From: Candidatus Eiseniibacteriota bacterium | GTDB taxonomy: Bacteria > Eisenbacteria > RBG-16-71-46 | Assembly: GCA_963717505.1 (NCBI GenBank) | Contig: OY970342.1 | Span: 2,880,001-2,944,000 of the forward strand | Direction of reading: 5' to 3' | Length of the DNA stretch: 64,000 nucleotides | Shown: positions 16,092 through 48,924 of the stretch, in pieces | How positions within the stretch are numbered: the stretch's first letter is position 1 | How the letters are laid out: every line of letters begins with the position of its first letter | Position numbers and translations under genes: made by a program | Notes under the pieces: model-generated | What the model was told of the DNA's origin: nothing | The model's database searches: none | The model's input: only the letters and a program-made list of their open reading frames with translations

Positions 16092-16181
16092 CTGGCGTCC
16101 CCAACCATCGAGAATTCGAACCGCCTGATCGGCTGGTTGCGGGGGATGGATGGGCTCAAGCAGGATCTCAAGACCCCCTGA
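16092..16181 (+). repeat. att-like unit R1 (tRNA-Glu 3'-end copy + peptide-coding tail)
   Basis: CTGGCGTCCCCAAC-CATCGA-GAATTCGAAC..., translating LASPTIENSNRLIGWLRGMDGLKQDLKTP*. Confidence 0.8.
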
Positions 16182-30504: not shown

Positions 30505-30591
30505 GTGGCGTCCTCAACGGGCGCGGATTCGAACCGCTTGGCGGCGTGGCTTCGCGGGATGGATGTGCTCCGTCGTGTTTTGGCTGTGTAG
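30505..30591 (+). repeat. att-like unit R2
   Basis: GTGGCGTCCTCAACG-GGCGC-GGATTCGAAC..., translating VASSTGADSNRLAAWLRGMDVLRRVLAV*. Confidence 0.85.
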
Positions 30592-30601
30592 CTGTCCCCG
30601 C

Positions 30602-30630
30602 TTGCGCATAGTAACGGCCCGCGTTACTAT
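30602..30630 (+). promoter_or_regulatory. higBA promoter with HigA-type palindromic operator
   Basis: TTGCGC-N17-TACTAT. Perfect 9-bp inverted repeat ATAGTAACG-N5-CGTTACTAT (30608-30630). The GTG start is 6 nt after the -10 box, so the transcript is likely leaderless. Confidence 0.75.
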
Positions 30631-30636
30631 CGAACG

Positions 30637-30918
30637 GTGATTCGGAGCTTCCGAGGCAAGGACGCCCACCGGCTCTTCAACCGCAGCCCTGTCCGGAGGC
30701 TCGGGGCGGACGTTCAGCGCATCGCGCTACGCAAGCTAAGGCAGCTCGATGCTGCGGTTGCGCTGGAAGACCTTCGCGTTCCACCGGGCAATCGCCTCGA
30801 GAGACTCCGCGGTGATCGGGCCGGGGAGTGGAGCATCCGGATCAACGACCAGTGGCGCATCTGCTTCCGCTGGGAGGGAGGCGATGCTCATGACGTGGAG
30901 ATCGTGGATTACCACTGA
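30637..30918 (+). CDS. higB: HigB (RelE-family) toxin
   Basis: MIRSF...DLRVPPGNRLERLRGDRAGEWSIRINDQWRICF...EIVDYH. Confidence 0.95.
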   Translation: MIRSFRGKDAHRLFNRSPVRRLGADVQRIALRKLRQLDAAVALEDLRVPPGNRLERLRGDRAGEWSIRINDQWRICFRWEGGDAHDVEIVDYH

Positions 30919-30930
30919 ACTGGAGAGCTC

Positions 30931-31236
30931 ATGGCGACCAAGAAACTGACGCCGATTCATCCGGGAGAGATCCTGCTGGAGGACTTTCTCGAGCCACTGG
31001 GCTTGTCTCAGTACCGGCTAGCAAAGGGACTCAACGTTCCGGCCAGGAGAATCAACGAGATCGTCCTTAGGAAGCGCGCGATTACCGCCGACACGGCCTT
31101 GCGACTGGCGCGTTTCTTCGGAACCTCTGATCGGTTCTGGCTGAATCTCCAGGCAGCCTATGATCTCGATGTCGAGCGTGATCGCCTGGCTGGGCGGCTC
31201 CAGCGTGAGGTGGAAGTGCTGCGGCGCGCGAGCTAA
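30931..31236 (+). CDS. higA: HigA antitoxin (HTH)
   Basis: PIHPGEILLEDFL...RINEIV...ITADTALRLARFFGTS..FWLNLQAAYDL. Confidence 0.95.
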   Translation: MATKKLTPIHPGEILLEDFLEPLGLSQYRLAKGLNVPARRINEIVLRKRAITADTALRLARFFGTSDRFWLNLQAAYDLDVERDRLAGRLQREVEVLRRAS

Positions 31237-31242
31237 GAGTCG

Positions 31243-31335
31243 CTGGCGTCCCCAACGGGCGTGGATTCGAACCACCTCATCGGTTGGCTTCACGGAATGT
31301 ATTCCCTCCAGAGGTCTCTGGAGACTGCTGCGTGA
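31243..31335 (+). repeat. att-like unit R3
   Basis: CTGGCGTCCCCAACG-GGCGT-GGATTCGAAC..., translating LASPTGVDSNHLIGWLHGMYSLQRSLETAA*. Confidence 0.9.
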
Positions 31336-31382
31336 GGGGTTGCCAGACACCACTTCCCGGGAGATCGCCTGTTGTGCCCCAT

Positions 31383-32105
31383 CTAGTGGCGAGTTGGCTC
31401 GGATGGCGATGGTCGGGGCTTCGTGACCTGGATGATGAGCGGCTTGGTTGTCACGTAGCCTCGCCAAAGTCGCTCGAGTGGGAGATCTTTGCCCCGCAGT
31501 GGCAGGAATTCGCCGACTCCGAGTTCGAAGCGAATGCCGTATCGCCCCGCCTCTCCGAAGCACTGGCCGACGGCGCCATTACGATCGACGACGTCTTGAC
31601 GATCAGCGCCGCGCACGGGAGCTGCCGAAAACACATCCCAATCGCAGGCTGGACCAAGGTTCATGTCGAAGCGCCCTCGACCGAACCTGACGGGGTACAC
31701 AAGGCTATCGCCTGGACTCAGTGAGACGAAATCGGACTTGGAAAGTGTCCGCCCCAGGGAGTAGGCAATGCTTGGCTCCAAGACGCATCGGCGAGCCGAT
31801 GTAGCCCCCCAGACACGGACACGGAGATCCCATTCCCCTTCCTCTAGCATCTGCTCTGGCTTCGGGCGAAGGAGGACCAACGTATCCGACCCCGCGTTCA
31901 AGAACACGAGATTGAGATCGATCGCTTCACCCGCTGCGAAAACCGTGGTCGGTGTTCGGACGACCAACTGAAGCGACTGGGAGGTCGTCGCAGGCGTGAC
32001 AGGAGTGGCGAGCAACAGCCAAAGGATCATGGTAATGATCAAGGCAACGCTCACTTTGCAGTCGCCGGGTTCCATCGGGAACGACGAGGGATTGAAGGAT
32101 CCCAT
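31383..32105 (-). CDS. Hypothetical secreted protein (cassette gene, start uncertain)
   Basis: Hydrophobic signal-like segment and a beta-rich Ig-like region. Fills the R3-R4 interval. Confidence 0.6.
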   Translation of the reverse strand: MGSFNPSSFPMEPGDCKVSVALIITMILWLLLATPVTPATTSQSLQLVVRTPTTVFAAGEAIDLNLVFLNAGSDTLVLLRPKPEQMLEEGEWDLRVRVWGATSARRCVLEPSIAYSLGRTLSKSDFVSLSPGDSLVYPVRFGRGRFDMNLGPACDWDVFSAAPVRGADRQDVVDRNGAVGQCFGEAGRYGIRFELGVGEFLPLRGKDLPLERLWRGYVTTKPLIIQVTKPRPSPSEPTRH

Positions 32106-32159
32106 CTAAACGTACGTCGGGAGTGTGCGCTTCCCGCGAGCCTGAAACCAGCGTGATTG

Positions 32160-32245
32160 ATGGCGTCCCCAACGGTCGTTACTTCGACCGGCTGGTCGCC
32201 TGGCGCGGGGAGATGGACGGACTCCGGCAGGTGCTGGCAGCGTGA
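32160..32245 (+). repeat. att-like unit R4 (1-nt deletion)
   Basis: ATGGCGTCCCCAACG-GTCGT-TACTTCGAC.... With one base restored it reads MASPTVVTS(N)RLVAWRGEMDGLRQVLAA*. Confidence 0.85.
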
Positions 32246-32267
32246 GGTTTCTCGACCTCCGAAGTCC

Positions 32268-32915
32268 CTAGTGAAACACGTTTCGATTTACGAGCAACAG
32301 GTCCTCCGACCAGTCGTCCTCGCTGGATGCGATGTTCGACCAGATTCGCAGATAGAGGAAGGCCTTGCCGCCCTTCTCCGGTTCGTAGTCTGTCTTCTCG
32401 ATCCCGATCACGAGCGGATCCTCACCCAATTCAGGGATCTGGCGTAGCAAGTCGGCGCGTCCCGCCAACTCGACCCGCCCATCCTCGAAAACTTCCCAGA
32501 CGCCAGTGGAGTCGATGGTGAACGTCCGTATCAGGTCCTCTGAGAACGGAAGGTGGACCGCATTCAGTGTCAGGTACCCGCTGAGGTCGAAGGGAGGCAA
32601 CGTCTCCGACTTCTGCGTCCGAGCCCCGGTCATGGCATTCTCCGAGTAGGCGACGTCGCGAAGTGGAATCTGCTCCACAACGCTAAGATCGGACTTCCGC
32701 ACCTTCTCGAGTCGGAGCGTTCGCCTGTGCGAGTAGTAGGAGGGCGGATACTCGCTGATGGTCACGTACCGGAAGAAGTGGTCGGCGTTCTCTCCGAGGA
32801 GCGTCTGCCGCCGCCACGTTCCAGATCCGGGCGTGGCCGCAGCATCCGCTGCGATCAAGATGCTGATTGCGATGACGAGATACCTCACGGGCTGGTTATC
32901 GGCAGCGCAAGGCAT
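32268..32915 (-). CDS. Hypothetical secreted protein (cassette gene)
   Basis: Signal-like RYLVIAISILIAADAAA. No family recognised. Confidence 0.6.
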   Translation of the reverse strand: MPCAADNQPVRYLVIAISILIAADAAATPGSGTWRRQTLLGENADHFFRYVTISEYPPSYYSHRRTLRLEKVRKSDLSVVEQIPLRDVAYSENAMTGARTQKSETLPPFDLSGYLTLNAVHLPFSEDLIRTFTIDSTGVWEVFEDGRVELAGRADLLRQIPELGEDPLVIGIEKTDYEPEKGGKAFLYLRIWSNIASSEDDWSEDLLLVNRNVFH

Positions 32916-32998
32916 TCGCAGGAGACGAACCAGAGCCGCTTTCGAGGGGATGCGCTAGCGCTGATATCAGGCCCGGTGGAGGTGGTAGCCTGCGGTTC

Positions 32999-33910
32999 AT
33001 GAATCAGTTGCGAGTGTTGCTGACGGTGCTGGTTACGTTAGTGGTGCTCCCTACAGGCGCCGGGGCCTCGGCAGAGTCGCAAGTCGAATCGCTGTGGAGG
33101 GGCGTTTTCGAGGGCGACTCACTGTTCGTCCGCGCTGCCTGGATTCCGACAGTCGGTTCCGCGTCGTGCTATCAGAACGAAACCGGCGGCGCCGATACGA
33201 GTGAAGTGCGCCGGAAGTACGTCGAATACAGCATCGAGGACCTTCGCGGGAATGTCTGGCACCGCGGCGTGCTCTCAGAACCGGAGTCCCAGCAGTTCTG
33301 CTGCGATGAGGTATCCGCCGAGGTGGCCCCCTGGCCAGACAGATTGATCGTTAAGCTGACCACTCTCGGCTGGTACTGCGAACCTGCGGGGAACTGCCTG
33401 GCGTCGCGATTCATCCATGTCGCTGGCCCGGACTCGGTGGCAGAGAGCGCTTGGAGCGCTTGGGATGAAATCCCCTGGAACCCCGCGAGAGGCAGTTACT
33501 TCGACGCATGGGTGATCGAAGGGTGCTTTCAGTACCCGATGCGGCTGGAGGCCCGGTTGCAGGGCCACGCTCTCGAATTCAAGCCGACGTTTCCGCCTGG
33601 CGTGACGGAAGGCGATTTGCTCGAGAAGGAAGTCTACAAGGGCGAGGAGTTCGCGTACTGCCTACGGCCATTCAGCCCGACGAAGCCCACGTCGGTCGCC
33701 TGGTATCTGAAGTCAGACTCGAAGTCACCCGAGCGACTGATCATCCAACCGGGCGAGTCGATCGAGATCGTGTCGGCCGTGGTTCGAGCGGAGCGATCTG
33801 AAGGTGGGGAGCTTGCGCCCAAGATCGTCCAAGTAGGTGTCCGAGTGGCGGGCAGGCAAGGCTTCCTGACGCGGGTCGACTTGAAGGCTCTGGGCTTCAT
33901 CGGACTCTGA
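32999..33910 (+). CDS. Hypothetical secreted Cys-containing protein (cassette gene)
   Basis: Signal peptide and GGAGGT RBS. No family recognised. Confidence 0.65.
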   Translation: MNQLRVLLTVLVTLVVLPTGAGASAESQVESLWRGVFEGDSLFVRAAWIPTVGSASCYQNETGGADTSEVRRKYVEYSIEDLRGNVWHRGVLSEPESQQFCCDEVSAEVAPWPDRLIVKLTTLGWYCEPAGNCLASRFIHVAGPDSVAESAWSAWDEIPWNPARGSYFDAWVIEGCFQYPMRLEARLQGHALEFKPTFPPGVTEGDLLEKEVYKGEEFAYCLRPFSPTKPTSVAWYLKSDSKSPERLIIQPGESIEIVSAVVRAERSEGGELAPKIVQVGVRVAGRQGFLTRVDLKALGFIGL

Positions 33911-33968
33911 ACGTTCGGTGTCCGTCGACCAAGAAGGCTTGCCGTCACTGAGCCAGAGCTCAGGAATA

Positions 33969-34055
33969 CTGGCGTCCCCAACGGGCGTGGATTCGAACTC
34001 GCTGATGGGCTGGCTCCGTGAGATGGACGCGCTCCGGCAGGTGCTCGCTGCGTAG
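33969..34055 (+). repeat. att-like unit R5
   Basis: CTGGCGTCCCCAACG-GGCGT-GGATTCGAAC..., translating LASPTGVDSNSLMGWLREMDALRQVLAA*. Confidence 0.9.
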
Positions 34056-34168
34056 AGCCGAGTTCAGTACCGAACCCGTAGAGCGCCGTCCGTGCGATCA
34101 TGTACGATAGGTTGCCTTCGGGCAGCCTCAGAAATCGACTCTGCCTCCTGCGAATGGAGTCGTTCACT

Positions 34169-35119
34169 ATGCTCCGCACCCTGTTGCGCTGCGTCCTGCT
34201 CGCGCTCGTCGCGTCGTTGGGCGCGCGGCATGCACAAGCTCAAGCCCCAACGTTTCTGCTGCAGTGGGGCACCTCGGGAACTGGCGATGGACAGTTTCAG
34301 TCACCCTTCGGGATCGCCGTGGATCCGACCGGCTGCGTTTACGTTTGTGACCAGTACAACAATCGCATTCAGAAGTTCAGCCCAGACGGAGCATTTATCA
34401 CGAAGTGGGGCACGTACGGGCTCGACCCAGGGCAATTCAACATCCCACATTCCATTGGAGTTGACGCAATGGGGCACGTCGCAGTCGTCGACGTCGCTGA
34501 TCGGATTCAGGTTTTTACCTCCGACGGTGTTCTTATGCATTCGTGGGTGCAGCCCGACCATGCGTCTCCGACGATTCGGGATGTGACCGTTGACGCGATG
34601 GGTGTGATCTACATAGCCGACTATCAGGCCGAACGGATCGAGAAGTACAGTCTCGCGGGTGACTTTCTCGGGTCGGTAGGAGACGGCATCGATATTCCGC
34701 CGGGGAGCGTCGCACTCGATCCCATGGGCAACATATACGTGGGCCGGTACGGAAAGATTCGCCAGATCGTTAAGTTCAGTTCAGATGGTGGACAGCTGAC
34801 GAGCTTCGGGCAGGAGGGAGATGGCGACGGGCAGTTCCAGTCGCCGGTCGGGTTGGCGGCGAGCGACGATCTGGCCTACGTGGTCGACTACCAGAATTAC
34901 CGCGTGTTGTTCTTCACGAGCACAGGCGAGTTCCTGGGCAAATGGGGAAGCCCGGGCGCGGGTCCCGGTGAATTCGAGCAGCCGGTTCGCACCGCGCTGG
35001 CGAGCGACGGCGCGGTGTACGTCGTCGATCTACTCAACAACCGAATTCAGAAGTTCGCCCATGTTGTGACCCCTGTTCTTCGCCGGTCGTGGGGAGCGTT
35101 GAAAGCTCAGTATCGGTAG
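34169..35119 (+). CDS. Secreted NHL-repeat beta-propeller protein with SWGxLKxxYR tail
   Basis: GQFQSPxGIAVD..G.VYV.D..NNRIQKF repeats. C-terminus TPVLRRSWGALKAQYR. Confidence 0.88.
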   Translation: MLRTLLRCVLLALVASLGARHAQAQAPTFLLQWGTSGTGDGQFQSPFGIAVDPTGCVYVCDQYNNRIQKFSPDGAFITKWGTYGLDPGQFNIPHSIGVDAMGHVAVVDVADRIQVFTSDGVLMHSWVQPDHASPTIRDVTVDAMGVIYIADYQAERIEKYSLAGDFLGSVGDGIDIPPGSVALDPMGNIYVGRYGKIRQIVKFSSDGGQLTSFGQEGDGDGQFQSPVGLAASDDLAYVVDYQNYRVLFFTSTGEFLGKWGSPGAGPGEFEQPVRTALASDGAVYVVDLLNNRIQKFAHVVTPVLRRSWGALKAQYR

Positions 35120-35246
35120 CGAGACCCGTCGATGTGAAAGTCGCGTCGTCGCTCCCGCGCTCGCCGGATTCGAGAACCAGAACCGACCGCGCAACCCGCT
35201 GTGGGTCCGCGAAACGCCCGCAAGTGCCAGGGCCACAATGGCGGAA

Positions 35247-35270
35247 CTGGCGTCCCCAACGGGATTCGAA
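35247..35270 (+). repeat. attR-like 24-bp direct repeat of the tRNA-Glu 3' end (R6)
   Basis: CTGGCGTCCCCAACGGGATTCGAA, identical to 48848-48871. Confidence 0.92.
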
Positions 35271-35350
35271 TCGGAGGACCGCACGAAAGCACCGAATCCC
35301 ACGAGCGAGCAAACGAACGACGACAACGAGTTGCGGCCGATCGCTGAGGA

Positions 35351-35408
35351 CGATAGTGGTCGATAGTTAGCTTTGCTGCTCGATAGTTCCCGCACAGTTC
35401 CCGCACAG
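35351..35408. repeat. Short direct repeats near attR (possible integrase arm-type sites)
   Basis: CGATAGT at 35351, 35361 and 35381. Tandem AGTTCCCGCAC at 35385 and 35396. Confidence 0.5.
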
Positions 35409-35640
35409 TGTCCGCCGCAGAAGCCCCAGGTCCGCTACCTGCCCACCCGGCGACTGGGACTCGTGAGAGGCGGCTCCCCTTGGGCGTGAGAGGCTCCAGC
35501 GTGCCAGCCTGCCGGACGGTCGGATGGGGCCCCATTTCCTTTGCCAGGAGTCCCGTTCCAGAAAACTCAAGGAACGAGGGCGGCGAGCGTCGCCAGTGCC
35601 TCCGCGTTCACGTCGTAGGGGTTCTCTTTGCTCTCGTTGC

Positions 35641-36180
35641 TCATTGCTCGCCCGCCAGTGGCGGCTCGCCCGACGAGCCGGGGTAGCTTTGGCCCCCAAA
35701 AATAACCGCGGTGTAGTTCACGTGGCCGTCGTAGTCGCTGAGTGCGGCCATCGGAATGCGGATGTGAACCCACTGCGCCGGGGTCGGCCATCGGTACGGC
35801 CCCAGGCGCGTGTATCCCACAAACGCCCAATCGCTCAAGCGATAGACGTAGTAGCCGCTGCGCCACGCGTTCTGGGTGATGTAGAACTCCCAGCCGTCAT
35901 GGTTGCCGGTGGCGGGGTTGGAGTCAGCGTCGATGCCGATGCTGAGCCCCAGCTCGCGCACGTCCATGATGTGGTGCCCATCGAACAGCGCGCTGAAATA
36001 CAGATAGCCTCCGCGCGCAACCATCTCGTGCTGCAGGATGACCGGCACCGCGAGCGGTAGCTCGGGGTGGTCGGGGTTCGCGGGGAGCGCCGCGAGGCGC
36101 CCCCCGTGCTCGAGGTCGGGCGAAGTGATGCGGCAGCCGCACAGCGCGGCGGCCACGAGCAGCGTAGCGAGTCTGTTCAT
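35641..36180 (-). CDS. Hypothetical lipoprotein
   Basis: Lipobox LCGC and an IDADSNPATG motif. Confidence 0.6.
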   Translation of the reverse strand: MNRLATLLVAAALCGCRITSPDLEHGGRLAALPANPDHPELPLAVPVILQHEMVARGGYLYFSALFDGHHIMDVRELGLSIGIDADSNPATGNHDGWEFYITQNAWRSGYYVYRLSDWAFVGYTRLGPYRWPTPAQWVHIRIPMAALSDYDGHVNYTAVIFGGQSYPGSSGEPPLAGEQ

Positions 36181-36488
36181 GGAGTGTGTCCCAGCGCGGG
36201 ATTAGTAGTGAATCCTGGCGGACAATAGCGGTTGATGAACGTTTCTGCGATGTCGCGTTCCTCGTCGGTCGGCACCCCCCGAAGAACCTGTCCGGAATTC
36301 GACAGTTGTCCCGGCTTCGGGGCGCCGCCGCCTACGGTTCCGCGGGAGGCAAGGCCGAAACGGCCAATGGAAGGTACGTATTGTGCCGTCCCGTCGGAAT
36401 GAGAGTGCCTCATTGCGGCGTTTCGGTGGCGAATGTCGAGCGCCAGAGAAAAACGCCGCAGGATAGACCCTTCCCTTCCTCAGCGGGT

Positions 36489-38108
36489 CTACCGGGCGAC
36501 CACGATCTTGAGACGCTCGTCGTGGCCTGCCCACCGCGCGAGCAGAAAGTAGAGTCCGTTCGGCACCGGCCGGCCGCCATCGTCGCACCCGTTCCAATCC
36601 GTCGACTGATGTCCGGCCGCGAAAGCGCCAGGCGCCAAAGTCCGCAACCTGCGGCCCGTGAGGTCGTAGATCTCGAGCACAGCTTCGTCGGCGCTCCCTT
36701 CGAGCCCTCTGGCTGTCGCCAACGTCACCGCCAACTTCTCACCGCGGCACGGCAGCGGCCACGCCGCCAGCGATCGGGTCGGAAGGTGCGGGACCTCCAC
36801 GGACGCCACCTGATCCTTTCCGACAAACAGGTATGCCTGGCCGGCGGCCGCGCCGCCAGCGTTGTTGATGGGCCCGCCGAGAAGCAGGTCGTCGACCTCG
36901 TCGCCGTTCACGTCTCCGGCCCCAGCGACGGCCGTGCCGAGCATCTCACGTAGGGATCCGATCACGATGAGATCTGCAACAGCATCGACTCCAGGGCCAC
37001 CGTGGTAGACACGGACGCTCCCGGCGCCCGCCGCGTCACCGGGCGCTCCGATGACCATGTCGGCGAACCCGTCGCCGTTCACGTCTCCAGCGCCAGCGAT
37101 GCTACCGCCTCCCGTCAGCGTCAGATCGGCGACTTCATCAGCTTCGGGCCCACCGTAGTAGAGGAACGCGTTGCCGCCGCCGACGAGAAGATCGTCGTAC
37201 CCATCGCCGTTAACATCACCAGCACCAGCGACGGCCTGTCCGAAGACATAGGCCCCGACTTCATCGAGAACGAGGTCGGCGATCGCATCGGCCGCCGACC
37301 CGCCGTAGAAGACGTAGGCTCGATCGCTGCCAGGCCCGTTCTCGGGGGGGGCGCCAACGATCACATCGTCGTAGCCATCGCCATTCACGTCCCCTGCTCC
37401 CGCAGTGGACCTCCCGAAGTTGTCGCCCGCCTGTTCTCCCGACAGGACGAGATCCGCCGTATCGTCCATCGGGTTCCCACCATGAAAGAGGTAGGCCTGA
37501 CCGGCGTCGGTGCCGCCGGCGTCGTTCCGATAGGCACCAACGATCAGATCCGCGAAGCCATCACCATTGAAGTCTCCTGCTCCTGCGACCGAGTATCCGA
37601 ACCAGTCGGTGTCGCCGATGCCGGTCAATGTGAGATCGGCAATCGCATCCGCTGCAGGTCCTCCTAAGAAGACGTACGCCCTCCCGACATTGGTGCCCCC
37701 GGCCCCGTCATTGTTGGGAGCACCGACGATCAGGTCGGCGAATCCATCGCTGTTCACGTCCGCGCTCGCCACTGAATAGCCAAAGGCCGAACGATCGGGT
37801 CCGGTGAGGGTGAGATCGGCAGTGGCATCGGCGCTAGGCCCCCCGAAGTAGAGATCGACGCTTCCGGCCTCGGGCCCACCGGCATCGTTGCCGAATGCGC
37901 CGATGATCAGATCGGCGAATCCATCGCCGTTTACGTCACCTGCACCCACAGCGGAGCCGAACCAGTCGCCCGGCGCAGTGCCAGTGAAAGTGAGATGGGC
38001 ACCGTGGACGGTCGGAGGCCCGGGTAGCGCCGAGAACGCCGTTGAGGCGAGCACCGAGACGGCGACCGCAATGATGAGGAAAGCGAGAACCGCTGACGAC
38101 TTTGGCAT
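36489..38108 (-). CDS. FG-GAP/integrin-alpha repeat protein with FlgD-Ig/T9SS-like tail
   Basis: About seven (FG..VAGA)GDVNGDG.DD.IVGA repeats and WNG.DDGGRPVPNGLYF tail. Confidence 0.88.
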   Translation of the reverse strand: MPKSSAVLAFLIIAVAVSVLASTAFSALPGPPTVHGAHLTFTGTAPGDWFGSAVGAGDVNGDGFADLIIGAFGNDAGGPEAGSVDLYFGGPSADATADLTLTGPDRSAFGYSVASADVNSDGFADLIVGAPNNDGAGGTNVGRAYVFLGGPAADAIADLTLTGIGDTDWFGYSVAGAGDFNGDGFADLIVGAYRNDAGGTDAGQAYLFHGGNPMDDTADLVLSGEQAGDNFGRSTAGAGDVNGDGYDDVIVGAPPENGPGSDRAYVFYGGSAADAIADLVLDEVGAYVFGQAVAGAGDVNGDGYDDLLVGGGNAFLYYGGPEADEVADLTLTGGGSIAGAGDVNGDGFADMVIGAPGDAAGAGSVRVYHGGPGVDAVADLIVIGSLREMLGTAVAGAGDVNGDEVDDLLLGGPINNAGGAAAGQAYLFVGKDQVASVEVPHLPTRSLAAWPLPCRGEKLAVTLATARGLEGSADEAVLEIYDLTGRRLRTLAPGAFAAGHQSTDWNGCDDGGRPVPNGLYFLLARWAGHDERLKIVVAR

Positions 38109-38385
38109 CGTGCTTCTCCCCGTCTTGGTCGCTGCGAACGGCCTGCATCACCAGGCCAGCCCTGAGATTCGAACGGATCGACGAGTCGATGGGACTCGGC
38201 CTGGTTATCGGCCGAGCCGACGCCGACCTCGAAATGTTGTTCCCGGAAACCGGCTCGAGGTGCACGACGATCGTGCCACTCGGCATTGTCCCCGCATGGC
38301 GATCGCTTGACAGGCCGAATGCATAGGCGTTGACTCGGGTGCCACTCAGGACTGGGGCAGCAAGGCCCCGCGACAAGGAGGTCGC

Positions 38386-41300
38386 ATGCCCACGATGCCC
38401 ATATCGTGCTTCCGCCCGTCATGGACGACGGTCACAGCCACCGCCACTTCCCTGCTGGTGGCCCTCACTCTGGGACTGTTCACGCCTCCTGCGCCGTCTA
38501 GTGCCCAGGAACTGAACCCGGAGTTCCCCGTTACCGACGGCACTGTCTGGGCCATGACTGTGTTGGACAGCACGCTCTTCATTGGGGGTTCATTTACGTA
38601 CGTGGGCCGAAATACAGGCGGGTTTGTCGGTGTTGATTCCGCATCGGGCGAAGTGGCTGCGGGATCGGTCCGTGTCGATGGGCACGTGTACGCCAGTGCT
38701 CCAGATGGGCAAGGCGGTCACTATCTGGGTGGCTCGTTTAGGAGTATTTCCGGAGTCCCTAGGGATCGGCTAGCACATGTTCGATCCGATGGAACGCTAG
38801 GCGATTGGAACCCTGGAGCAGACGGCAATGTACGGGCCCTGGCGGTGACCGGTTCGACTGTCTATGTCGGTGGCTCCTTCACGACTATTGGAGGGCAGCA
38901 ACGGAACCGCATTGCTGCTCTCGACGCCACCACCGGGTTGGCCACGAGCTGGAATCCAGGGGCCAACGGAACAGTGAACACAGTCGCGGCGAGTGGGCCG
39001 ACCCTTTACGTCGGCGGAGCATTTAGTAACGCGGCCGGCGTAACGCGAAACAACCTGGCGGCGATTGATGTGGTGACAGGTGCTGCGACTATCTGGAACC
39101 CAGGCGCGAACCAACCTGTATCGGTTTTGGCTGTGAGGGGGCCCACGGTCTACGCGGGGGGGGCCTTCACAAGTATTGGTGGACAGTCACGAGACCGCGT
39201 CGCCGCACTCAATACAGTAGGCGGTCAGGCCAGGAGCTGGAATCCTGGTGCGAGTGGCCTCGTAGCCGCGCTGGGGTTTCGGGGATCACTAGTTTACGTG
39301 GGCGGCAGCTTCTATAACATCGGAAGCCAGGCCCGGCAATCACTAGCTGAGATCGACTCGGTGAGCGGTCTGGCCACATCGTGGAATCCCGCCATCGAAA
39401 GCGGCTCTCTCCCTGGAGTAGTGGGAGCCATCTTAGTTAGTGAGGCATCGGTCTACGTTGGCGGAGCATTTACCAGCGCGGGTGGGCAGGGGCGCTTGAA
39501 CGTGGCTGAGATAGACGCCGCGACGGGCCTTGCCACGAGCTGGAGCCCGCACACCAGTGGTCAGGTGAACACCATTTCCTGGAGCGGGTCAACAGTCTAT
39601 GTCGGTGGAATCTTCACAAGCATTGGTGGAGTCAAACGTAACCGTCTCGCCGCAATTGACATCACGACCGGCTTCACGACTGGATGGGACCCTGGAGCGA
39701 ACTACAACGTCATGGCATTAGAAGGGAAGGGCTCGACAATCTACGTCGGTGGCTACTTCACCGGCATAGCCTCAGAGTCGCGAAGCAACATCGCCGCTCT
39801 CGACGCCTCCACTGGGCTGGCCACAAATTGGAGCCCTGAGGCAAGCGGACCCGTCTACACCATCGCTCTCAGGGGTTCGACGGTCTATGTCGGTGGCGAC
39901 TTCACCAGTATTGGTGGGCAGTCACGAAATCGCATTGCAGCAATCGACTCTGCCACCGGTCTGCCTACGAGTTGGGACCCCGGAGCAAACGGAGACGTGC
40001 GGACTATTGCGATGGGTGACTCGACTGTCTATGCAGGCGGCTTCTTCACCAGCATAGGAGGAGAGCCACGAAGCAGGATTGCCGAGCTTGACGCCACCAC
40101 CGGGTTGGCTACGAGTTGGAACCCAGCCGCTGGTGGGGAGTGGTTCACCGTGCAGACCCTCGCGTTGAGCGGCCCGACGGTCTATGTCGGCGGCATCTTC
40201 ACGAGCATGGGTGGGCAGCCGCGATCCAACCTCGCCGCCATCGATGCCACTACAGGCCTGGCCAACAACTGGAATCCCCAGGCGGATGGCATGGTCTACG
40301 TTCTGAAAGTTGCTGGACCGACGGTCTATTCGGGTGGGTCCTTCTCTACGATCGGCGGACAACAGCGCAACGGCCTCGCCGCACTTGTTGGCACCACTGG
40401 ACTGGCTACGAGCTGGTCAGCAGACGCAGATAGTTTCGTGTCCATCCTTGCTGTGACCGATGATGCGGTCTACGCCGGTGGCTCATTCAATTCAATCGAC
40501 GGCAGAAGCAGGCCCAACTTGGCGCAATTTCTTGGACCGACACCCATACCAGTTCCGAGGGCTGTTGTTTCGGACATCCAAATTGCAGAAGGCGATGTGG
40601 GGGCGGCCCAACTACTCTTCACCGTGACGTTGTCAGAACCGTTCGACCAGCCGGTGACTGTGGACTTCAGCACTGTCGACGGTTCAGCTACAGCTGCGGA
40701 CGACTACGTAGCGATCTCGGGGACGCTCACAATCCCTCCTCACGAACCAAGTGGGGTAATCTCAGTGAGCGTTGTTGGCGATGGCGTGTACGAGCCGGAT
40801 GAAACACTCTTACTCAGCCTGAGCAACCCCACAAACGCCGAAATTGGCGATTTCCAAGCCGTAGGCACGATCATTAACGATGATCCGATTCCGACGATTG
40901 CCGCCGTCGCCCCCGTCGAAACCCTTTCTCCGACCACGCCATCCCTAGCCATCCCGGTGACGATTGCCCGCGGGGACCCTTCGGTGATTCTCGGGTACTC
41001 GGTGCGGCTGCATCTCACCGATCTGACGATTACTGGCGGCGGGATCGCTGGGTTTGTCGAGGGAACATTCCTTCAAGCTGGCAATCCTCTAACGAGCTTT
41101 CAGGTGGTCGACAACGGTGGTGGATCGTACACGGTGGACAACGTGACGCTGGGCATGCCTTGCGGATCGACCGCAACAACCGGAACCCTGTTCAGTGTTG
41201 CTGTTGGAAATGGCACGCTGGCTGGCTTCGGTTCCGTGACGATCGACCAGGCGACCGTCTACGACTGCAACAATGCTGCCTCATCGTTCGCCATCGGGCC

Positions 41301-43125
41301 ACCGGTTGCGGTCTCTATCGACTACACCCCACCGGTGGTGGCAGTAACATCGCCAAACGGTGGGGAATTCTGGCCCGAGACAATCACCTGGAACGCGACG
41401 GATGACGTCGCGATCGCGCAGTGCGATCTGCACTATTCAACTGACGACGGCACTACGTTCTCGAACGTCATCGCGCTCGATGTCCCCAACTCGGGGACGT
41501 ACGCATGGTCGCCGCCCACTACACCAAATGCGCAGGCTCGAGTTCGAGTGACCGCCTATGACGTGAACGGCAACGCCTCTAGCGATGCCAGTGATGCGAG
41601 CTTTGTTCTTGGGCAGTACGGCCTGACGGTGAGCGTGTCCAACGGTACCGTCGTTAAGTCGCCAGATTTGCCCGCGTACGACCCAGGGGTCGATGTGATG
41701 CTTACGGCGACCGCAGTGGCCGGCTTCCATTTCGTGGAATGGACCGGTGACGCGACTGGGTCCGCAAACCCCGTGACGATCACAATGGATGGCAACAAGG
41801 CCGTCACCGCGATCATCCAGGCGAACCCTCCTGTAGCACCGATCACCGCGCTATCTGCCACTCAGGTCAGAACTGGAAACGACTCCGACGGCTCAACGAA
41901 GATCCGGTTGAGCTGGCCATCAGTGCCCGCAGGCACCGTAGTCGTGGTCTATCGGGCGGGGTTTGGCTACTACCCTCGATACGACGAGCTTGGTGGTGCA
42001 GTCCCCTCGGTCCCGTCCTATCCGCCACCAACTCCGTGGAGCCCAGTAGCGGTTAGTTCGTCGGGCGAGACCGATGAGCCGCCAGGGCGGGACTTCCACT
42101 ATTACGTCGCGTTTGTCGTTGATGGGTTTGGAACCGTCTCACCGGCATCGAACCTGACCGGCGGGGCCCTGAACTACCACCTCGGCGACGTGACGAATGG
42201 CGCGACACCAGGTCAGGGCGACAACATTGTGGACATCGCAGATGTCTCGCTACTAGGAAGTCACTATGGCGCGTCGGGTGCCGAGGCAATCGCATTTGCA
42301 TACCTCGATGTCGGGCCGACCACTGATCGATCAGTGCACACGCGGCCGACAACAGACGGGCGACTCGACATTGAGGACTTGGTCTTGTTCGGACTCAACT
42401 ACGCTCAGGTGTCCGCTCCCATGGCCAATGCTCGAACGACGACAATCAAGGCCGGCGTCGATGAGTTGACATTGCTCGTGGCCGAATTGCCGCCCGATCA
42501 ATTGGAGGCGACCCTCGAACTCAGAGGCACCGGAGCCATACAGGCTCTTGCGACCACGCTGCAATGGGATCCGGCGGTAGTGGAGCCGGTCGACCATGCC
42601 GCGGGCGAATTAGTCGTGGACCAGGGTGGACTGGCACTGTCCCCGGGGCCCGGCCGCATTGACGCGACGCTTCTTGGTGCCCGGCCCATGGGGCTCTCCG
42701 GCGTTGGCGAGGTGGCTTCGATCAGGTTTCGCCGGCTGGCGCCAGGGGATCCCGCTATCGAGTTCCAGTCCGCGATCGCGCGGGATGCTCTGAATCAGGA
42801 TGTGCCACTGTCTACCACGTATGCAGCCGAAGTACCGCATGGCCCCATGGCGTACGCATTGTCACCGCCATTCCCGAATCCCTTCCGGTTAACCACGACG
42901 CTGTCCTTTGGCCTAGCGCATTCGGGAACTGTTGAGCTAGCCGTCTTTTCCGTAGACGGACGGCGGGCTCGGACGCTTCTTAGCGGGCCAATTGGCGCTG
43001 GGGACCACCGGGTGCCCTGGGACGGGCGGGACGCCCTGGGCAGCCGCGTCCCAGCCGGTATCTACTACGCGCGACTCACCACGACGCACGGCCAATTCCT
43101 ACAGAGGGTGGTCCACCTGCCATAG
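38386..43125 (+). CDS. Large secreted repeat protein: propeller repeats, Calx-beta, Ig-like, dockerin-like and cohesin-like modules, FlgD tail
   Basis: About 13 YVGGxFTSIGGQxRNxIAALDATTGLATSWNP repeats, Calx-beta (FTVTLS...GTIINDD), paired DxxxDxxD motifs, and PAGIYYARL tail. Confidence 0.85.
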   Translation: MPTMPISCFRPSWTTVTATATSLLVALTLGLFTPPAPSSAQELNPEFPVTDGTVWAMTVLDSTLFIGGSFTYVGRNTGGFVGVDSASGEVAAGSVRVDGHVYASAPDGQGGHYLGGSFRSISGVPRDRLAHVRSDGTLGDWNPGADGNVRALAVTGSTVYVGGSFTTIGGQQRNRIAALDATTGLATSWNPGANGTVNTVAASGPTLYVGGAFSNAAGVTRNNLAAIDVVTGAATIWNPGANQPVSVLAVRGPTVYAGGAFTSIGGQSRDRVAALNTVGGQARSWNPGASGLVAALGFRGSLVYVGGSFYNIGSQARQSLAEIDSVSGLATSWNPAIESGSLPGVVGAILVSEASVYVGGAFTSAGGQGRLNVAEIDAATGLATSWSPHTSGQVNTISWSGSTVYVGGIFTSIGGVKRNRLAAIDITTGFTTGWDPGANYNVMALEGKGSTIYVGGYFTGIASESRSNIAALDASTGLATNWSPEASGPVYTIALRGSTVYVGGDFTSIGGQSRNRIAAIDSATGLPTSWDPGANGDVRTIAMGDSTVYAGGFFTSIGGEPRSRIAELDATTGLATSWNPAAGGEWFTVQTLALSGPTVYVGGIFTSMGGQPRSNLAAIDATTGLANNWNPQADGMVYVLKVAGPTVYSGGSFSTIGGQQRNGLAALVGTTGLATSWSADADSFVSILAVTDDAVYAGGSFNSIDGRSRPNLAQFLGPTPIPVPRAVVSDIQIAEGDVGAAQLLFTVTLSEPFDQPVTVDFSTVDGSATAADDYVAISGTLTIPPHEPSGVISVSVVGDGVYEPDETLLLSLSNPTNAEIGDFQAVGTIINDDPIPTIAAVAPVETLSPTTPSLAIPVTIARGDPSVILGYSVRLHLTDLTITGGGIAGFVEGTFLQAGNPLTSFQVVDNGGGSYTVDNVTLGMPCGSTATTGTLFSVAVGNGTLAGFGSVTIDQATVYDCNNAASSFAIGPPVAVSIDYTPPVVAVTSPNGGEFWPETITWNATDDVAIAQCDLHYSTDDGTTFSNVIALDVPNSGTYAWSPPTTPNAQARVRVTAYDVNGNASSDASDASFVLGQYGLTVSVSNGTVVKSPDLPAYDPGVDVMLTATAVAGFHFVEWTGDATGSANPVTITMDGNKAVTAIIQANPPVAPITALSATQVRTGNDSDGSTKIRLSWPSVPAGTVVVVYRAGFGYYPRYDELGGAVPSVPSYPPPTPWSPVAVSSSGETDEPPGRDFHYYVAFVVDGFGTVSPASNLTGGALNYHLGDVTNGATPGQGDNIVDIADVSLLGSHYGASGAEAIAFAYLDVGPTTDRSVHTRPTTDGRLDIEDLVLFGLNYAQVSAPMANARTTTIKAGVDELTLLVAELPPDQLEATLELRGTGAIQALATTLQWDPAVVEPVDHAAGELVVDQGGLALSPGPGRIDATLLGARPMGLSGVGEVASIRFRRLAPGDPAIEFQSAIARDALNQDVPLSTTYAAEVPHGPMAYALSPPFPNPFRLTTTLSFGLAHSGTVELAVFSVDGRRARTLLSGPIGAGDHRVPWDGRDALGSRVPAGIYYARLTTTHGQFLQRVVHLP

Positions 43126-43139
43126 GAGGTGAAGAGTTC

Positions 43140-43964
43140 GTGTGCGGTTCACGATGCTGTGCCACGTTCTCGCCATTCGTGTGGCTTGGAACGGCGCTTC
43201 TCGTCATGTTCGCATCTTCTTCGGAGGCGGGGGTAGTCGTGTCGATCCCTCCCGACTCTTTGGTCGTCGCGGCAGGTTCAGAGTTCGAGGTCAGCGTCGT
43301 TGTTACGGAAGCAGGGTCAAGTTTCAACGCGATCAGTTTAGTGATTGGGTTCGATCCCGATGCCCTGATGCCGCTGCCAATATCTCCGCTCACGGGGCAG
43401 GTCGGCGCGGCCCTGCTCGATGCCTGCACGAGCGTGTTCCACGATTTCCGCATTGGCTCTTTGAGCGACACAATCAACTGTGCGCTGTTGTGCGGCGGTG
43501 CTTCGACTTCTGGACCTGGCCAAATCTACCGCCTGCGATTTCGGGCCTCGCCGGTTCCTCAAGTCACGGAGCTGACTTTCGTCGAGAGCAAGTTCTACCA
43601 GGCAGGCGTACTCGTGACACCGGTTACGTCAACCAACATGGTTGTTCAGGTCGCAGCACAGGCGGCGGGGGTCACTGATGGGACCCTGACTGGGGCCTTG
43701 TCCGTCCAGGCAACGCCGAACCCAATAAGAGGGGGGACCCTCCTCGTGGTCCACGGTCCAGAAGCCGGGTACCTGACGCTTTCGGTCATGGACATCCAGG
43801 GGCGGGCGGTGCGTCAGTTGGTTGCCGGATGGAGCGTTGGGCCCTGGAAAGCATGGTGGGACGGTAAGGACGATTCGGGTGTAACTGTGCCCGCGGGTGT
43901 TTACTACGCCGTGGTTCGCACGTCGTCTGGATCCGCCCAAAGCCGAATCGTCGTGCTGCGCTAG
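43140..43964 (+). CDS. Secreted cohesin-like domain protein with FlgD-Ig/T9SS-like tail
   Basis: GSEFEVSVVV...FNAISLVIGFDPDAL...GPGQIYRLRF and WDGKDDSG..VPAGVYY. Confidence 0.7.
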   Translation: MCGSRCCATFSPFVWLGTALLVMFASSSEAGVVVSIPPDSLVVAAGSEFEVSVVVTEAGSSFNAISLVIGFDPDALMPLPISPLTGQVGAALLDACTSVFHDFRIGSLSDTINCALLCGGASTSGPGQIYRLRFRASPVPQVTELTFVESKFYQAGVLVTPVTSTNMVVQVAAQAAGVTDGTLTGALSVQATPNPIRGGTLLVVHGPEAGYLTLSVMDIQGRAVRQLVAGWSVGPWKAWWDGKDDSGVTVPAGVYYAVVRTSSGSAQSRIVVLR

Positions 43965-43965
43965 C

Positions 43966-44005
43966 TGTGATGTCTCACCACTGAACAACCTCCTGAGACA
44001 TCACA
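43966..44005. repeat. 40-bp inverted-repeat element
   Basis: TGTGATGTCTCA-N16-TGAGACATCACA, a perfect 12-bp IR extending to 16/17 with flanks. Confidence 0.6.
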
Positions 44006-44305
44006 GTTAGGTCAGGACTTCGCTTGCGCTGCGGCGGCGCAGATGCATGATGTTTCCCGGTTGCGGCGCTGGTGCGTGGTGTTCGGCGATAAGGAACGAA
44101 GCATAGGCTGAGTGTGTCGAGCTGGCCTGGCAACTGTGAGGGACGTTTGGTGGCGAAGTCACGCCTGGTCGACATGCTGCTAGGCTTGATGACTGTCTTG
44201 GGGGACAAACCCTGCTGACGCGTGGGGGTCGGACGATTGCGAATGTTCGGCTTGGCCTCAAGAATAACCAAGTGAGCGACCTGCGTTCGCTTCCAAAATA
44301 GGCAG

Positions 44306-45022
44306 ATGACCGACCAGCCTTCCCCCTCAGAGGTTCCCAGCTCAACCGGCCTGCCATCGGCGGACACGACCCCCGAGAATTCGGCGCTTCTCGGAGATGC
44401 GAGCCGCACACTTTATCGTCGATTTGTCCGCAAGGATGCCGAGGTCCCGGTGAAACCGCCGCCTCTGGCGGCAATGTACTTGGGCGCCAAGATGGTTCGC
44501 CTCCGCCCGGACAATCCCGAGTTCATCTCCCACGCTGGCCACAGCATCCGAGAGCTCATCGACGCGCTTCCCGGCAAGTACCCAAACGTTCCGGTGTTCG
44601 ACCATGTGGATCTAGTTTCAAGGTCGCGTTCGCTGATTGACGCCTGGACTGCTTACCAAGGTGCGGCGCCCGGCGTCAAAGCCCACCTTGGCGCGACATT
44701 CGAATCCACTATGCAGGGCTTTGCGACAGACATGGCGGGAGTGCGCGTTACGAGACGAGAGCAGGCCGGAGCCCTGATGGGAGCGATGGACCCTTCAGGT
44801 CGCCCGCTTCCACCTGTAATAGCGGAGCTCAGGGTGGACGAGTGGGGCGCCTATCGCGCGTTCTTTGTCCGGGCCTGCCACCATGGTTTAACGACCCCCG
44901 AAGACTTCGACAGAATGCTGGAGCTATTCGAAGAGTTTCTGATAGATCGATTGGGTCTGAGGACGTTTCGGAGTCAAGCGGCTCTCGAAGCGATAGTCGC
45001 GGAAGGAGAGCGGCATGCCTAA
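44306..45022 (+). CDS. Hypothetical protein, candidate HEPN-like nuclease effector
   Basis: NPEFISHAGHSIRELIDALP and FFVRACHH motifs. Its stop overlaps the start of the next gene. Confidence 0.55.
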   Translation: MTDQPSPSEVPSSTGLPSADTTPENSALLGDASRTLYRRFVRKDAEVPVKPPPLAAMYLGAKMVRLRPDNPEFISHAGHSIRELIDALPGKYPNVPVFDHVDLVSRSRSLIDAWTAYQGAAPGVKAHLGATFESTMQGFATDMAGVRVTRREQAGALMGAMDPSGRPLPPVIAELRVDEWGAYRAFFVRACHHGLTTPEDFDRMLELFEEFLIDRLGLRTFRSQAALEAIVAEGERHA

Positions 45023-47912: not shown

Positions 47913-47921
47913 ACGGAGTAG

Positions 47922-48752
47922 TCATGCTGGCCGAATCGTTAGCCTGAATTCGGAATCCGCCAGGTTCGCTTGGAGTACTTGGACAGGACGGTTGCGACGT
48001 CCCAGGATGTCACGGACGCGAGCCTGATCCTCGCGGGATACTCTGCAACCGAGGATAACGCCGTCGATCGCCTCCTCGGGGATCTCCACCAAGCCAGGTC
48101 CCCCATGGCGCACGATCCGCCACTCACGCTCGTGACTCCATACGACGGCCTTGGTCGCCAAGGTTGATTGACTCCGTCGGAAGGGACTAGAGCGGTAGAA
48201 GTTGATCTTGGGGTAGGTGTTCTCGTACGTAACTGGCATGGGTCCGTAGCAGCCTAGCCATTCATGGGACCTTAGAAGCAGTCCCGTGTTGAAGCGCAGG
48301 CATACACCTCGGTGCCCATCCGCGTAGTAGCCCCACATGGGCAAATCGTTGGGGACCTCGCTGAGACACACAACTCCGAGTTGGGCCACTGCCTCATCAT
48401 GACCAGCACGTAGCCGCTTGTGGGCTTCCGTGACGGGCATCATCAAGATGCGATCGATGGCACTGGCATCTCTTGCGAGACCCATTTCAACTTGAACGCG
48501 TTCCCAGAACTCTCGTTTCTCTTGGTCTGTCGCGTCATCAACCGGATAAACAGCACCATCAAATGGATCATTGAACTCGGAGATCATAGGAAAGTAGAGC
48601 AGCGATCGAAGGGCGAGATCACAGAACCAGGCGAATCGATCGCCCCGGATGCTTACGTACCTGTAAAGACTGGGCAGGTGTTCCAGACGCAATCTCCACG
48701 CGGCGATCGTCGCGTGGTCCTCCTCAGTAAATCCTTGCTCGGCGTCGTTCAT
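47922..48752 (-). CDS. DUF2971 domain protein
   Basis: LYRY, FNDPFD, CLSE..NDLPMWGYYADGHRGVCLRF, K..VWSHEREWR, VILG. Confidence 0.85.
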   Translation of the reverse strand: MNDAEQGFTEEDHATIAAWRLRLEHLPSLYRYVSIRGDRFAWFCDLALRSLLYFPMISEFNDPFDGAVYPVDDATDQEKREFWERVQVEMGLARDASAIDRILMMPVTEAHKRLRAGHDEAVAQLGVVCLSEVPNDLPMWGYYADGHRGVCLRFNTGLLLRSHEWLGCYGPMPVTYENTYPKINFYRSSPFRRSQSTLATKAVVWSHEREWRIVRHGGPGLVEIPEEAIDGVILGCRVSREDQARVRDILGRRNRPVQVLQANLADSEFRLTIRPA

Positions 48753-48848
48753 GGCTAACCTCGCTTTCTGCCTGCCTGTGGTGACCGCAGCAAGGCGTGC
48801 TTTCTGAACGTCTCTGCGCCGGAGTGTCCGAGGGGCGCGTGAACGGTC

Positions 48849-48924
<76 letters not shown>

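Follow-up and report, generated by a model that had tools for sequence, protein, structure and literature searches.

Five copies of a short repeat, R1 to R5, lie on the plus strand of a 64-kb stretch of the genome of a Candidatus Eiseniibacteriota bacterium (contig OY970342.1, positions 2,880,001 to 2,944,000; hereafter the window), downstream of its tRNA-Glu(UUC) gene. Judged from their sequence, they are probably the distal junctions of elements whose recombinase open reading frame (ORF) straddles the element's own attachment site (attP), each keeping a P' half-site of the large serine recombinase (LSR) type, where LSR denotes a protein with Resolvase, Recombinase and zinc-ribbon domains. 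R1–R5 would then be hybrid attachment (att) sites, formed as one element after another integrated site-specifically at the tRNA-Glu(UUC) 3' end. This reading draws on the constant geometry of the repeats, their coding signature, the fusion of the same tail to recombinases, and integrated and free LSRs found in other genomes, metagenome loci and viral contigs.

Core, spacer and offset of the repeats

The tRNA-Glu(UUC) gene (48849-48924, minus strand) was called by ARAGORN and is the only tRNA gene of the window as well as the one tRNA-Glu called in the whole genome. The plus-strand reading of its 3' end, which would act as the B'-type half-site, is CTGGCGTCCCCAACGGGATTCGAACCC, and its antisense can be split into TGGCGTCCCCAACG followed by GGATTCGAAC. 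Each of R1–R5 consists of 13–16 nt of this antisense 3' end, five extra nucleotides and then a T-loop-like motif. R2, R3 and R5 read TGGCGTCCYCAACG, GGCGY, GGATTCGAAC; R4 has the spacer GTCGT and then TACTTCGAC, with a 1-nt deletion; and R1, at position 16092 and thus outside 30505..34055, reads TGGCGTCCCCAACC, ATCGA, GAATTCGAAC. The tRNA antisense and the spacers are as given in a preliminary description of the locus. Repeats with the 5-nt spacer and a tail are called type A below, and plain tRNA-Glu 3' fragments without a spacer type B.

The 14-mer TGGCGTCCYCAACG, with up to 2 mismatches, occurred 8 times in the window against 1.83 expected, a number reached in 0 of 100 shuffles, and all 7 copies of the exact 13-mer in the 4.16-Mb genome fell inside the window. 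The repeats are therefore real and not a product of chance.

Counted from the T of TGGCG, the motif T[CG]GA[AG]C started at nt 24 in 21/21 tail-bearing copies from the window and related genomes, which had been chosen by a peptide pattern allowing 5 or 6 residues at the spacer, and at nt 19 in 18/18 tRNA-Glu genes. The constant spacer length proposed earlier thus extends to every one of these copies, with no length variation among them. To the left of TGGCG the mean entropy was 1.79 of 2 bits over 30 nt in the same 21 copies, i.e. the sequence there is unconserved, as had also been described. Two-half-site dyad symmetry was checked on the LSR-side flanks, where no mirrored motif was seen by eye.

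A sixth copy, DR6 (35247..35270, plus strand), is of type B and repeats the tRNA-Glu 3' end directly with 100% identity over 24 nt. Compared with a displaced fragment of the Islander type, R1–R5 match the tRNA for 13–16 nt before the 5-nt offset, whereas DR6 matches over 24/24 nt at a distance of 13.6 kb from the tRNA.

The tail as a reading frame

Conservation continues for about 75 nt rightward in each repeat and ends at a stop codon. The preliminary description had missed this, together with the severed 3' end of a recombinase ORF that it forms and the copy DR6. The frame CTG GCG TCC CCA gives LASPTG(V/A)DSN.L..WLR.MD.LR..L.. and a stop in R1, R2, R3 and R5. In R1 (16092..16181, plus strand) the core TGGCGTCCCCAAC and the shifted T-loop-like motif are followed by the 29-codon tail LASPTIENSNRLIGWLRGMDGLKQDLKTP and a stop; the tails of R2 (30505..30591, plus strand), R3 (31243..31335, plus strand) and R5 (33969..34055, plus strand) read (V)ASSTGADSNRLAAWLRGMDVLRRVLAV, LASPTGVDSNHLIGWLHGMYSLQRSLETAA and LASPTGVDSNSLMGWLREMDALRQVLAA, each before a stop. 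R4 (32160..32245, plus strand) is a degenerate type A copy in which the frame is shifted by the 1-nt deletion, located in an AAC codon; its distal part still reads RLVAWRGEMDGLRQVLAA and a stop. The overall consensus is ...SN.L..WLR.MD.LR...A(A) and a stop, and the form found in free elements is ...[NDS][SW]N.L..WLR.MD.LR...A(A) and a stop.

Among 20 in-frame copies, Arg codons exchange between CGN and AGR, second positions of Leu/Met codons are invariant with varying third positions, and the stop follows after 28–31 codons in 18. This pattern suggests that the frame, now orphaned, was shaped by selection at the protein level. At codons 8–10 (..T T[CG]G AAC) the third positions are invariant in the 20 copies, compared with an average of about 1.4 bits at the third positions of codons 11–26, which indicates a constraint on the DNA itself on top of the coding. 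Of the array tails, 14/18 end in -A and 7/18 in -AA.

The possibility that the tail is the end of a local gene was considered and rejected, because the frames upstream of the tails are short or are high-GC antisense artefacts, such as a 454-aa frame opposite an NHL gene at locus L049. Signs of dead fragments were found in several copies, namely the frameshift in R4, an in-frame stop (L077:3331) and a lost stop (L081).

A profile of the tail peptide gave clustered matches in related genera, including 8 at E <= 1 in genome G012, 5 of them below 1e-5, and further matches in G002, G010, G011, G017, G036, G016, G019 and G015. In the unpublished genome G026 the sole match had E 0.457 and was not used. 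Repeat arrays downstream of tRNA-Glu(UUC), oriented as in the window, were present in three other genera (G012, G011 and G017). Type B fragments also occur in relatives, at L076 (G012:C8, 10140-10287, minus strand) and L077 (G002:C6, 6781, plus strand); one of these lies 45 nt from a tail repeat, and the 20 kb fetched contained no intact tRNA-Glu.

The window genome itself has a sixth tail about 210 kb upstream of the window (C1:2670142-2670210, minus strand), reading ..LVALRGAGTNPIASWLREMDALRHALAA before the stop. Its head corresponds to the tRNA-Glu(CUC) 3' end, the target also of the integrated LSR in genome G083, and by its sequence it would be a P'-type scar at a second tRNA of this genome. 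About 0.9 kb from it and adjoining tRNA-Gln(CUG) is a tRNA-Glu(CUC) (C1:2669162-2669270, plus strand) in which 33 nt, spanning the anticodon loop to the T-arm, are duplicated in tandem; ARAGORN did not call this gene, and the duplication may be a recombination scar or an assembly artefact.

Proteins carrying the tail

A profile of 19 tail peptides was searched against 1.84 billion representative proteins and gave 562 matches at E <= 1e-3. In 116 of the best 150 of these, the motif lies no more than 5 residues from the C-terminus. Most matches are short mis-called ORFs, and the N-terminal extensions that can be classified are site-specific recombinases. If the repeats are junctions, many annotated 'proteins' of 30–190 aa ending in the motif, among these 562, would mostly be scars and not genes.

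The C-terminal region of an LSR was found in 8 of the best 150 matches. Two full-length LSRs end in the tail, P0152 (519 aa) and P0153 (515 aa), and a third, P0151 (500 aa), ends ...LASPTGFEPVLPP, of which ...TRLASPTGFEPVLPP is the antisense reading of the tRNA-Glu 3' end. Tyrosine-integrase N-terminal parts were likewise present in 8 of the best 150, six matching the C-terminal part of one integrase type and two (P0072, P0118) matching another type. Since tail-ended and tRNA-ended forms exist in both recombinase families, both ORFs cross the attachment core. As far as the core, the ORF is common to integrated and free forms; beyond it they diverge, the integrated ORF ending in the tRNA antisense as ...LASPTGFEPVSPP and a stop. 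An LSR ORF ends in the tail, as the P' half of an intact attP, in P0152, P0153, L214, L215, L319, L328, L371 and L379, and 7/8 of these free-form LSRs end in -AA.

A word-based search for long proteins with the R5 tail found nothing, which is weak evidence. An AlphaFold2 model of P0153, built from a 7-row alignment, had a mean pLDDT of 67.8 with residues 454–515 below 50, so the helical tail (497–514) and any docking cannot be read from it.

Large serine recombinases at several tRNA targets

In the window's own family, integrated LSRs read into tRNA-Glu(UUC) in genomes G014 and G089 and into tRNA-Glu(CUC) in G083. From metagenomes, 80 LSR loci were returned, of which the 48 with a match reaching at least residue 461 were examined, the other 32 being cut by contig ends. 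The ORF ended in an ARAGORN-called tRNA at 28 of the 48 loci (Glu 16, Ala 5, Lys 2, Arg 2 and one each for Asn, Met and Phe). Four more (L319, L328, L371, L379) end in ..WN...[WN]LR...AA tails with other heads, reading ..VVSR followed by NFANWNQLDGWLRQIEGLRRAA and a stop in L319 and ..LVAQ followed by IFPRWNRVEGWLREAEGYSRAA and a stop in L328; the contigs of L328 and L379 are 64 kb and 22.7 kb long and have no tRNA at the ORF end. The last 16 have other ends, mostly tRNA-like peptides at contig ends. Viral contigs L214 and L215 (42 and 46 kb) encode LSRs ending ..MVDLRMPTWNHVNTFLRHFTPLAA and ..LVDLLTPSWNPTLAWLRHLYDTLPRAA before the stop, and the LSR of viral contig L216 ends ..LVDLTGIEPVTS and a stop inside tRNA-Ala. 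The relatives on viral contigs were found with LSR alignment A6; a search with P0153 alone gave none.

Free and integrated forms could be paired for tRNA-Ala (L215 and L214 against L216) and for the tRNA-Lys type (L319 against L316 and L373), with the same 5-bp offset in each. After four shared tRNA-encoded residues, the free form has TTGGAACC at nt 12–19 and the tRNA has ATCGAACC at nt 7–14; the Ala and Lys offsets were counted by hand from the printed DNA, these being the two targets at which both site forms are comparable. As the offset recurs at Ala and Lys targets, it is a rule of this LSR clade and not a quirk of the window. It also corresponds to the published spacing for a Listeria integrase, whose zinc-ribbon domain (ZD) motif lies at half-site bp 16–24 in attP and 11–19 in attB according to PMC3783163; the preliminary description had given this shift as a known rule, with which the paper agrees.

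At locus L211 (G054:C231, 257-282, minus strand), the site 3' of the LSR gene is tRNA-like up to GGGATTCGCACC and then tail-like (..CTGATCGGGCTGG). Because this hybrid site has no 5-nt spacer, its frame stops early (..GVASPTGFAPP and a stop). The sequence suggests that tRNA and tail were exchanged inside the T-loop motif they have in common.

Proposed origin of the repeats

In the proposed mechanism, the recombinase ORF of the free element would cross attP and end in the amphipathic tail. Each junction would consist of two parts, a common core of 13–16 bp identical to the antisense tRNA 3' end, which must contain the crossover, and a P'-type arm that also supplies the final ~25 codons of the recombinase gene of the arriving element. 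Integration would cut the ORF at the core, leaving the tail at the far end of the element and a recombinase that ends in the tRNA-encoded residues. The tail, together with TTCGAAC or TTGGAAC displaced by exactly 5 bp away from the core relative to the true T-loop, would be the mark of a tRNA-targeting LSR clade. The acceptor-stem bases would be the contact of the recombinase domain shared by both sites, and the T-loop would serve as the ZD motif, in the attB position in the tRNA and in the attP position in the repeats. The LSR crossover, of 2 bp, is predicted to lie inside TGGCGTCC; mapping TTCGAACC onto the half-site numbers given in PMC3783163 would place it some 5–7 nt inside the CCA end.

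The recombinases would since have been lost from this genome, leaving a stack of P' half-sites with their cargo, to which the 13.6-kb island behind DR6 was presumably added later. The 24-nt identity of DR6 is that of a standard displaced fragment of a T-loop crossover, which would make this island the last to arrive. At the other end of the array, R1 is the outermost copy and directly follows the end of a phosphodiesterase gene, where the similarity of this gene to orthologous loci stops. In an empty-site synteny check, the phosphodiesterase orthologues of 4 genomes were not beside tRNA-Glu within the DNA fetched. At L308 (G024:C180), the orthologue of the phosphodiesterase gene end and a downstream alcohol-dehydrogenase start were found with ~92% identity in non-colinear order, which could reflect rearrangement or mis-assembly. 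The best-matching sequencing runs shared only 0.07–0.14 of the sampled words.

If this reading is correct, LSRs do target tRNA genes, contrary to a statement in the Islander paper (PMC4383910), and the universal T-loop would be their zinc-ribbon motif, with specificity coming from the acceptor stem. The sites would provide natural attP/attB pairs at several tRNAs on which the 5-bp rule of the structural model could be tested, and would suggest a way to LSRs able to integrate at conserved tRNA genes in a wide range of hosts. With attP inside the ORF, integration would replace the conserved tail, in most cases one with -AA at its end, by a few tRNA-encoded residues; this would amount to a simple switch between the free and the integrated state, of a kind not yet described for the LSR family. 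No report of tRNA-targeting LSRs or of an LSR ORF spanning attP was found in a literature search that left subscription journals mostly uncovered, nor in the available portions of PMC12884075 and PMC12424338.

Evidence against a serine recombinase and alternative explanations

Several observations weigh against attributing R1–R5 to LSRs. The window genome, a single contig of 4.16 Mb with 86.7% marker completeness, had 0 matches to PF00239, PF07508 or P0151, and tblastn detected no serine recombinase in it either. A profile built from LSR 3' ends had no match in the left flanks of the type A copies (0/20), and a full LSR profile run over the arrays gave nothing except a fragment in G010; at L079, one tblastn alignment runs about 9 residues upstream of the tail. 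No tail was found at E <= 0.1 in G089 and G014, where an integrated LSR is present, and their far junction may be lost, unassembled or too divergent. LSRs usually bind two half-sites, but the left halves here are unconserved. The same core in the same frame is used by tyrosine integrases, which read into tRNA-Glu at L082 (a Candidatus Eisenbacteria metagenome-assembled genome) and in G085 and G086, and the eight tail-bearing proteins with tyrosine-integrase N-terminal parts point the same way. A profile of 7 tyrosine-integrase 3' ends, searched with nhmmer, matched the flank of DR6 (35202..35246, plus strand; E 2.8e-6) and that of the tRNA-proximal type A repeat of G012 (E 1.7e-10). Finally, G045 holds a 4.7-kb element laid out as tail, cargo (AbiE-like, read by eye from ORF translations), tyrosine-integrase pseudogene with an internal TAG, and tRNA-Glu; it has no further repeat.

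The 45-nt remnant at DR6 lies immediately to its left and belongs to the integrase type that reads into tRNA-Glu in relatives, and the window unit formed by R5, an NHL gene, this remnant and DR6 resembles the G045 element. No other integrase or LSR remnant was detected in the window. The genome has 6 matches to PF00589, none of them in the window, and no match to the family's tRNA-Glu tyrosine integrase.

These findings suit a different origin, in which the repeats are attR scars of tyrosine-integrase elements, the tail arm being their P' arm, either native or captured from LSR elements; tandem integration, which is known to be tolerated, would have built the array, and the integrase genes would have decayed later. 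We regard this as unlikely. Integrated tyrosine integrases end in LASPTGFEPVSPP inside tRNA-Glu, and the linker before the core is conserved among them, so that their ORF natively reaches the core. Their tRNA-Glu type is also widespread, matching 49/89 family genomes at E <= 1e-10 compared with 22/89 for P0151 at the same threshold, of which only 5 are close (51–73% identity over most of the protein) and the rest are fragments or share about 25–35% identity. On the other side, there is no known reason for a tyrosine recombinase to retain the displacement of a T-loop-like motif by exactly 5 bp, or the invariant third positions. Relatives of the tyrosine integrase on viral contigs have no tail (0/10), while LSR relatives with other tRNA targets do; none of 80 contig loci obtained with the tyrosine-integrase alignment has a tail, and of 20 fetched family loci that contain the integrase, 0 have an adjacent tail. 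No sorting of tails by recombinase type was seen, as is expected if they were swapped at a common core. In our reading, two unrelated recombinase families would share the hotspot and its core and exchange arms there, the tail and its geometry originating with the LSR clade, and either family may have made a given junction in the window.

The interpretation as LSR P-type half-sites, put forward in the preliminary description, is thus largely supported at the level of sequence, since an LSR clade with the tail at several tRNA targets and with the offset as published exists, and LSRs, in addition to tyrosine integrases, use this site. As a whole it is only partly supported, being weakened where it concerns the window itself, which has neither a serine recombinase nor an LSR remnant, and where tyrosine integrases share the core, frame and tails and have left their remnant against DR6.

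A more far-reaching suggestion is that the LSR clade recognises only the primed half, which in the tRNA is the acceptor stem with the T-loop and in the element is the tail arm. The array would then be a platform for gene capture, similar to an integron and served in trans by serine recombinases that visit the genome. The unconserved left flanks fit the one-sided recognition suggested in the preliminary description; they would also result from successive insertions beside whatever DNA adjoined the tRNA, and we consider the platform itself improbable. Under one-sided recognition, any circle with one P' arm would be insertable at the tRNA, recombination between a P' arm of the array and the tRNA end would release the intervening cassettes without a directionality factor, and the swap of the recombinase's own -AA tail would act as a built-in sensor of the integrated state.

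Each repeat could instead be an independent small gene for an amphipathic peptide of ~30 aa, starting with an NTG codon at the CCA boundary of the tRNA. Most copies begin with CTG, TTG, ATG or GTG, some are preceded by purine-rich stretches, and gene callers predict many 30–90-aa proteins ending in the motif. This is very improbable, given that the commonest first codon, CTG (10/21), is a poor start and GTA, CTT, TTA, GGG and GGA are also seen, that the same peptide is the C-terminus of complete recombinases, and that copies carry a frameshift, an in-frame stop and a lost stop as dead fragments do.

A last alternative treats the repeats as structured RNAs or pseudo-tRNA fragments, the latter being 3' halves of a tRNA with 5 inserted nucleotides, unlinked to recombination. 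It is suggested by the acceptor 3' strand and T-loop-like motif common to repeats and tRNA and by a possible 4-bp T-stem-like pairing in R2 and R3 with one compensatory change (by eye), and was rejected as extremely improbable on an Rfam scan of the window, whose only match was the genuine tRNA, and on the z-scores of eight folds (4 repeats on both strands; -0.71 to +1.80), the substitution pattern being that of a reading frame.

Comparison with known integration systems

R1–R5 resemble the att sites of serine integrases (Listeria innocua/A118-type, phiC31, Bxb1), as described by Rutherford et al. 2013 (PMC3783163), in having a shared inner motif, an outer 8–9-bp motif lying 5 bp further out in the attP-type half, and short sites that give hybrid junctions after integration. 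They differ from them in the tRNA 3' end target, the location of attP in the recombinase ORF, the single conserved half and the arrangement in arrays.

The archaeal SSV1-type integrases also have attP inside the ORF, and their int gene becomes partitioned when the element inserts at a tRNA gene. Common features are thus attP in the recombinase ORF, the tRNA target, the split ORF and chromosomal fragments that mark captured DNA. SSV1-type enzymes are archaeal tyrosine recombinases whose gene is split near the N-terminus and inactivated, whereas here only the last ~25 codons would be exchanged with the catalytic domains intact. As the recombinase family and the host domain differ, this is an analogy and not membership.

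Integration-dependent immunity of mycobacteriophages was reportedly described by Broussard et al. 2013. As here, according to PMC8092301, attP lies in an ORF, attB is at the 3' end of a tRNA whose transcription runs toward that ORF, and integration removes a C-terminal piece ending in -AA, an ending that the integrases there also have. In mycobacteriophages the repressor gene is split and the integrase is a tyrosine integrase, whereas in the present case the recombinase itself would be split.

Recombinase-less remnants at tRNA genes are known from 'CIME' accretion. In tandem islands at tRNA genes (Islander, PMC4383910), successive integrations push older elements outward and leave a ladder of fragments, and the window resembles these. 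DR6 and the 13.6-kb island form a standard case of this type, with an intact tRNA and a displaced 3' direct repeat; unlike Islander-type islands, R1–R5 are not plain tRNA fragments, no unit has an integrase gene, and the units measure 0.7–1.8 kb. Like integrons and CALINs, the window has short conserved sites in an array, each accompanied by one or two cargo genes, among them a toxin-antitoxin pair, and no recombinase nearby. The window differs from them in having no attC-like hairpin (the fold z-scores given above), no PF00589 match and sites derived from a recombinase ORF and a tRNA end.

Cargo of the window

The cargo between repeats measures 0.7–1.8 kb per unit and once 14 kb, the latter between R1 and R2, where ordinary accessory genes are found. 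Between R2 and R3 lie a HigB-like toxin (30637-30918, plus strand; PF05015, E 8e-19) and an HTH_3 antitoxin (30931-31236, plus strand; PF01381, E 4e-9). This HigA-like antitoxin ORF (in the region 30931-31245) stops two codons short of R3 and shares the frame of the R3 tail, which was treated as chance (1 in 3). The R3–R4 unit contains a 240-aa ORF (31383..32105, minus strand), and the R4–R5 unit contains a 215-aa ORF (32268-32915, minus strand) and a 303-aa ORF (32999-33910, plus strand), none of the three having a Pfam family. An NHL-repeat protein (34100..35119, plus strand; PF01436, E 2e-24) lies between R5 and DR6.

The island between DR6 and the tRNA (35271..48848), bounded by the perfect 24-nt direct repeat, encodes mostly large secreted-type repeat proteins, among them an FG-GAP protein, a 1579-aa DUF5122/Calx-beta protein and FlgD_ig proteins, in which FlgD_ig is the C-terminal domain, together with a 965-aa ORF and a DUF2971 protein adjoining the tRNA. 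No recombinase gene was found in this island. Long internal DNA repeats at 36489-43125 of the window, with 144-nt units in the 1579-aa ORF and ~170–180-nt units in the FG-GAP ORF, are ordinary coding sequence for beta-propeller repeats.

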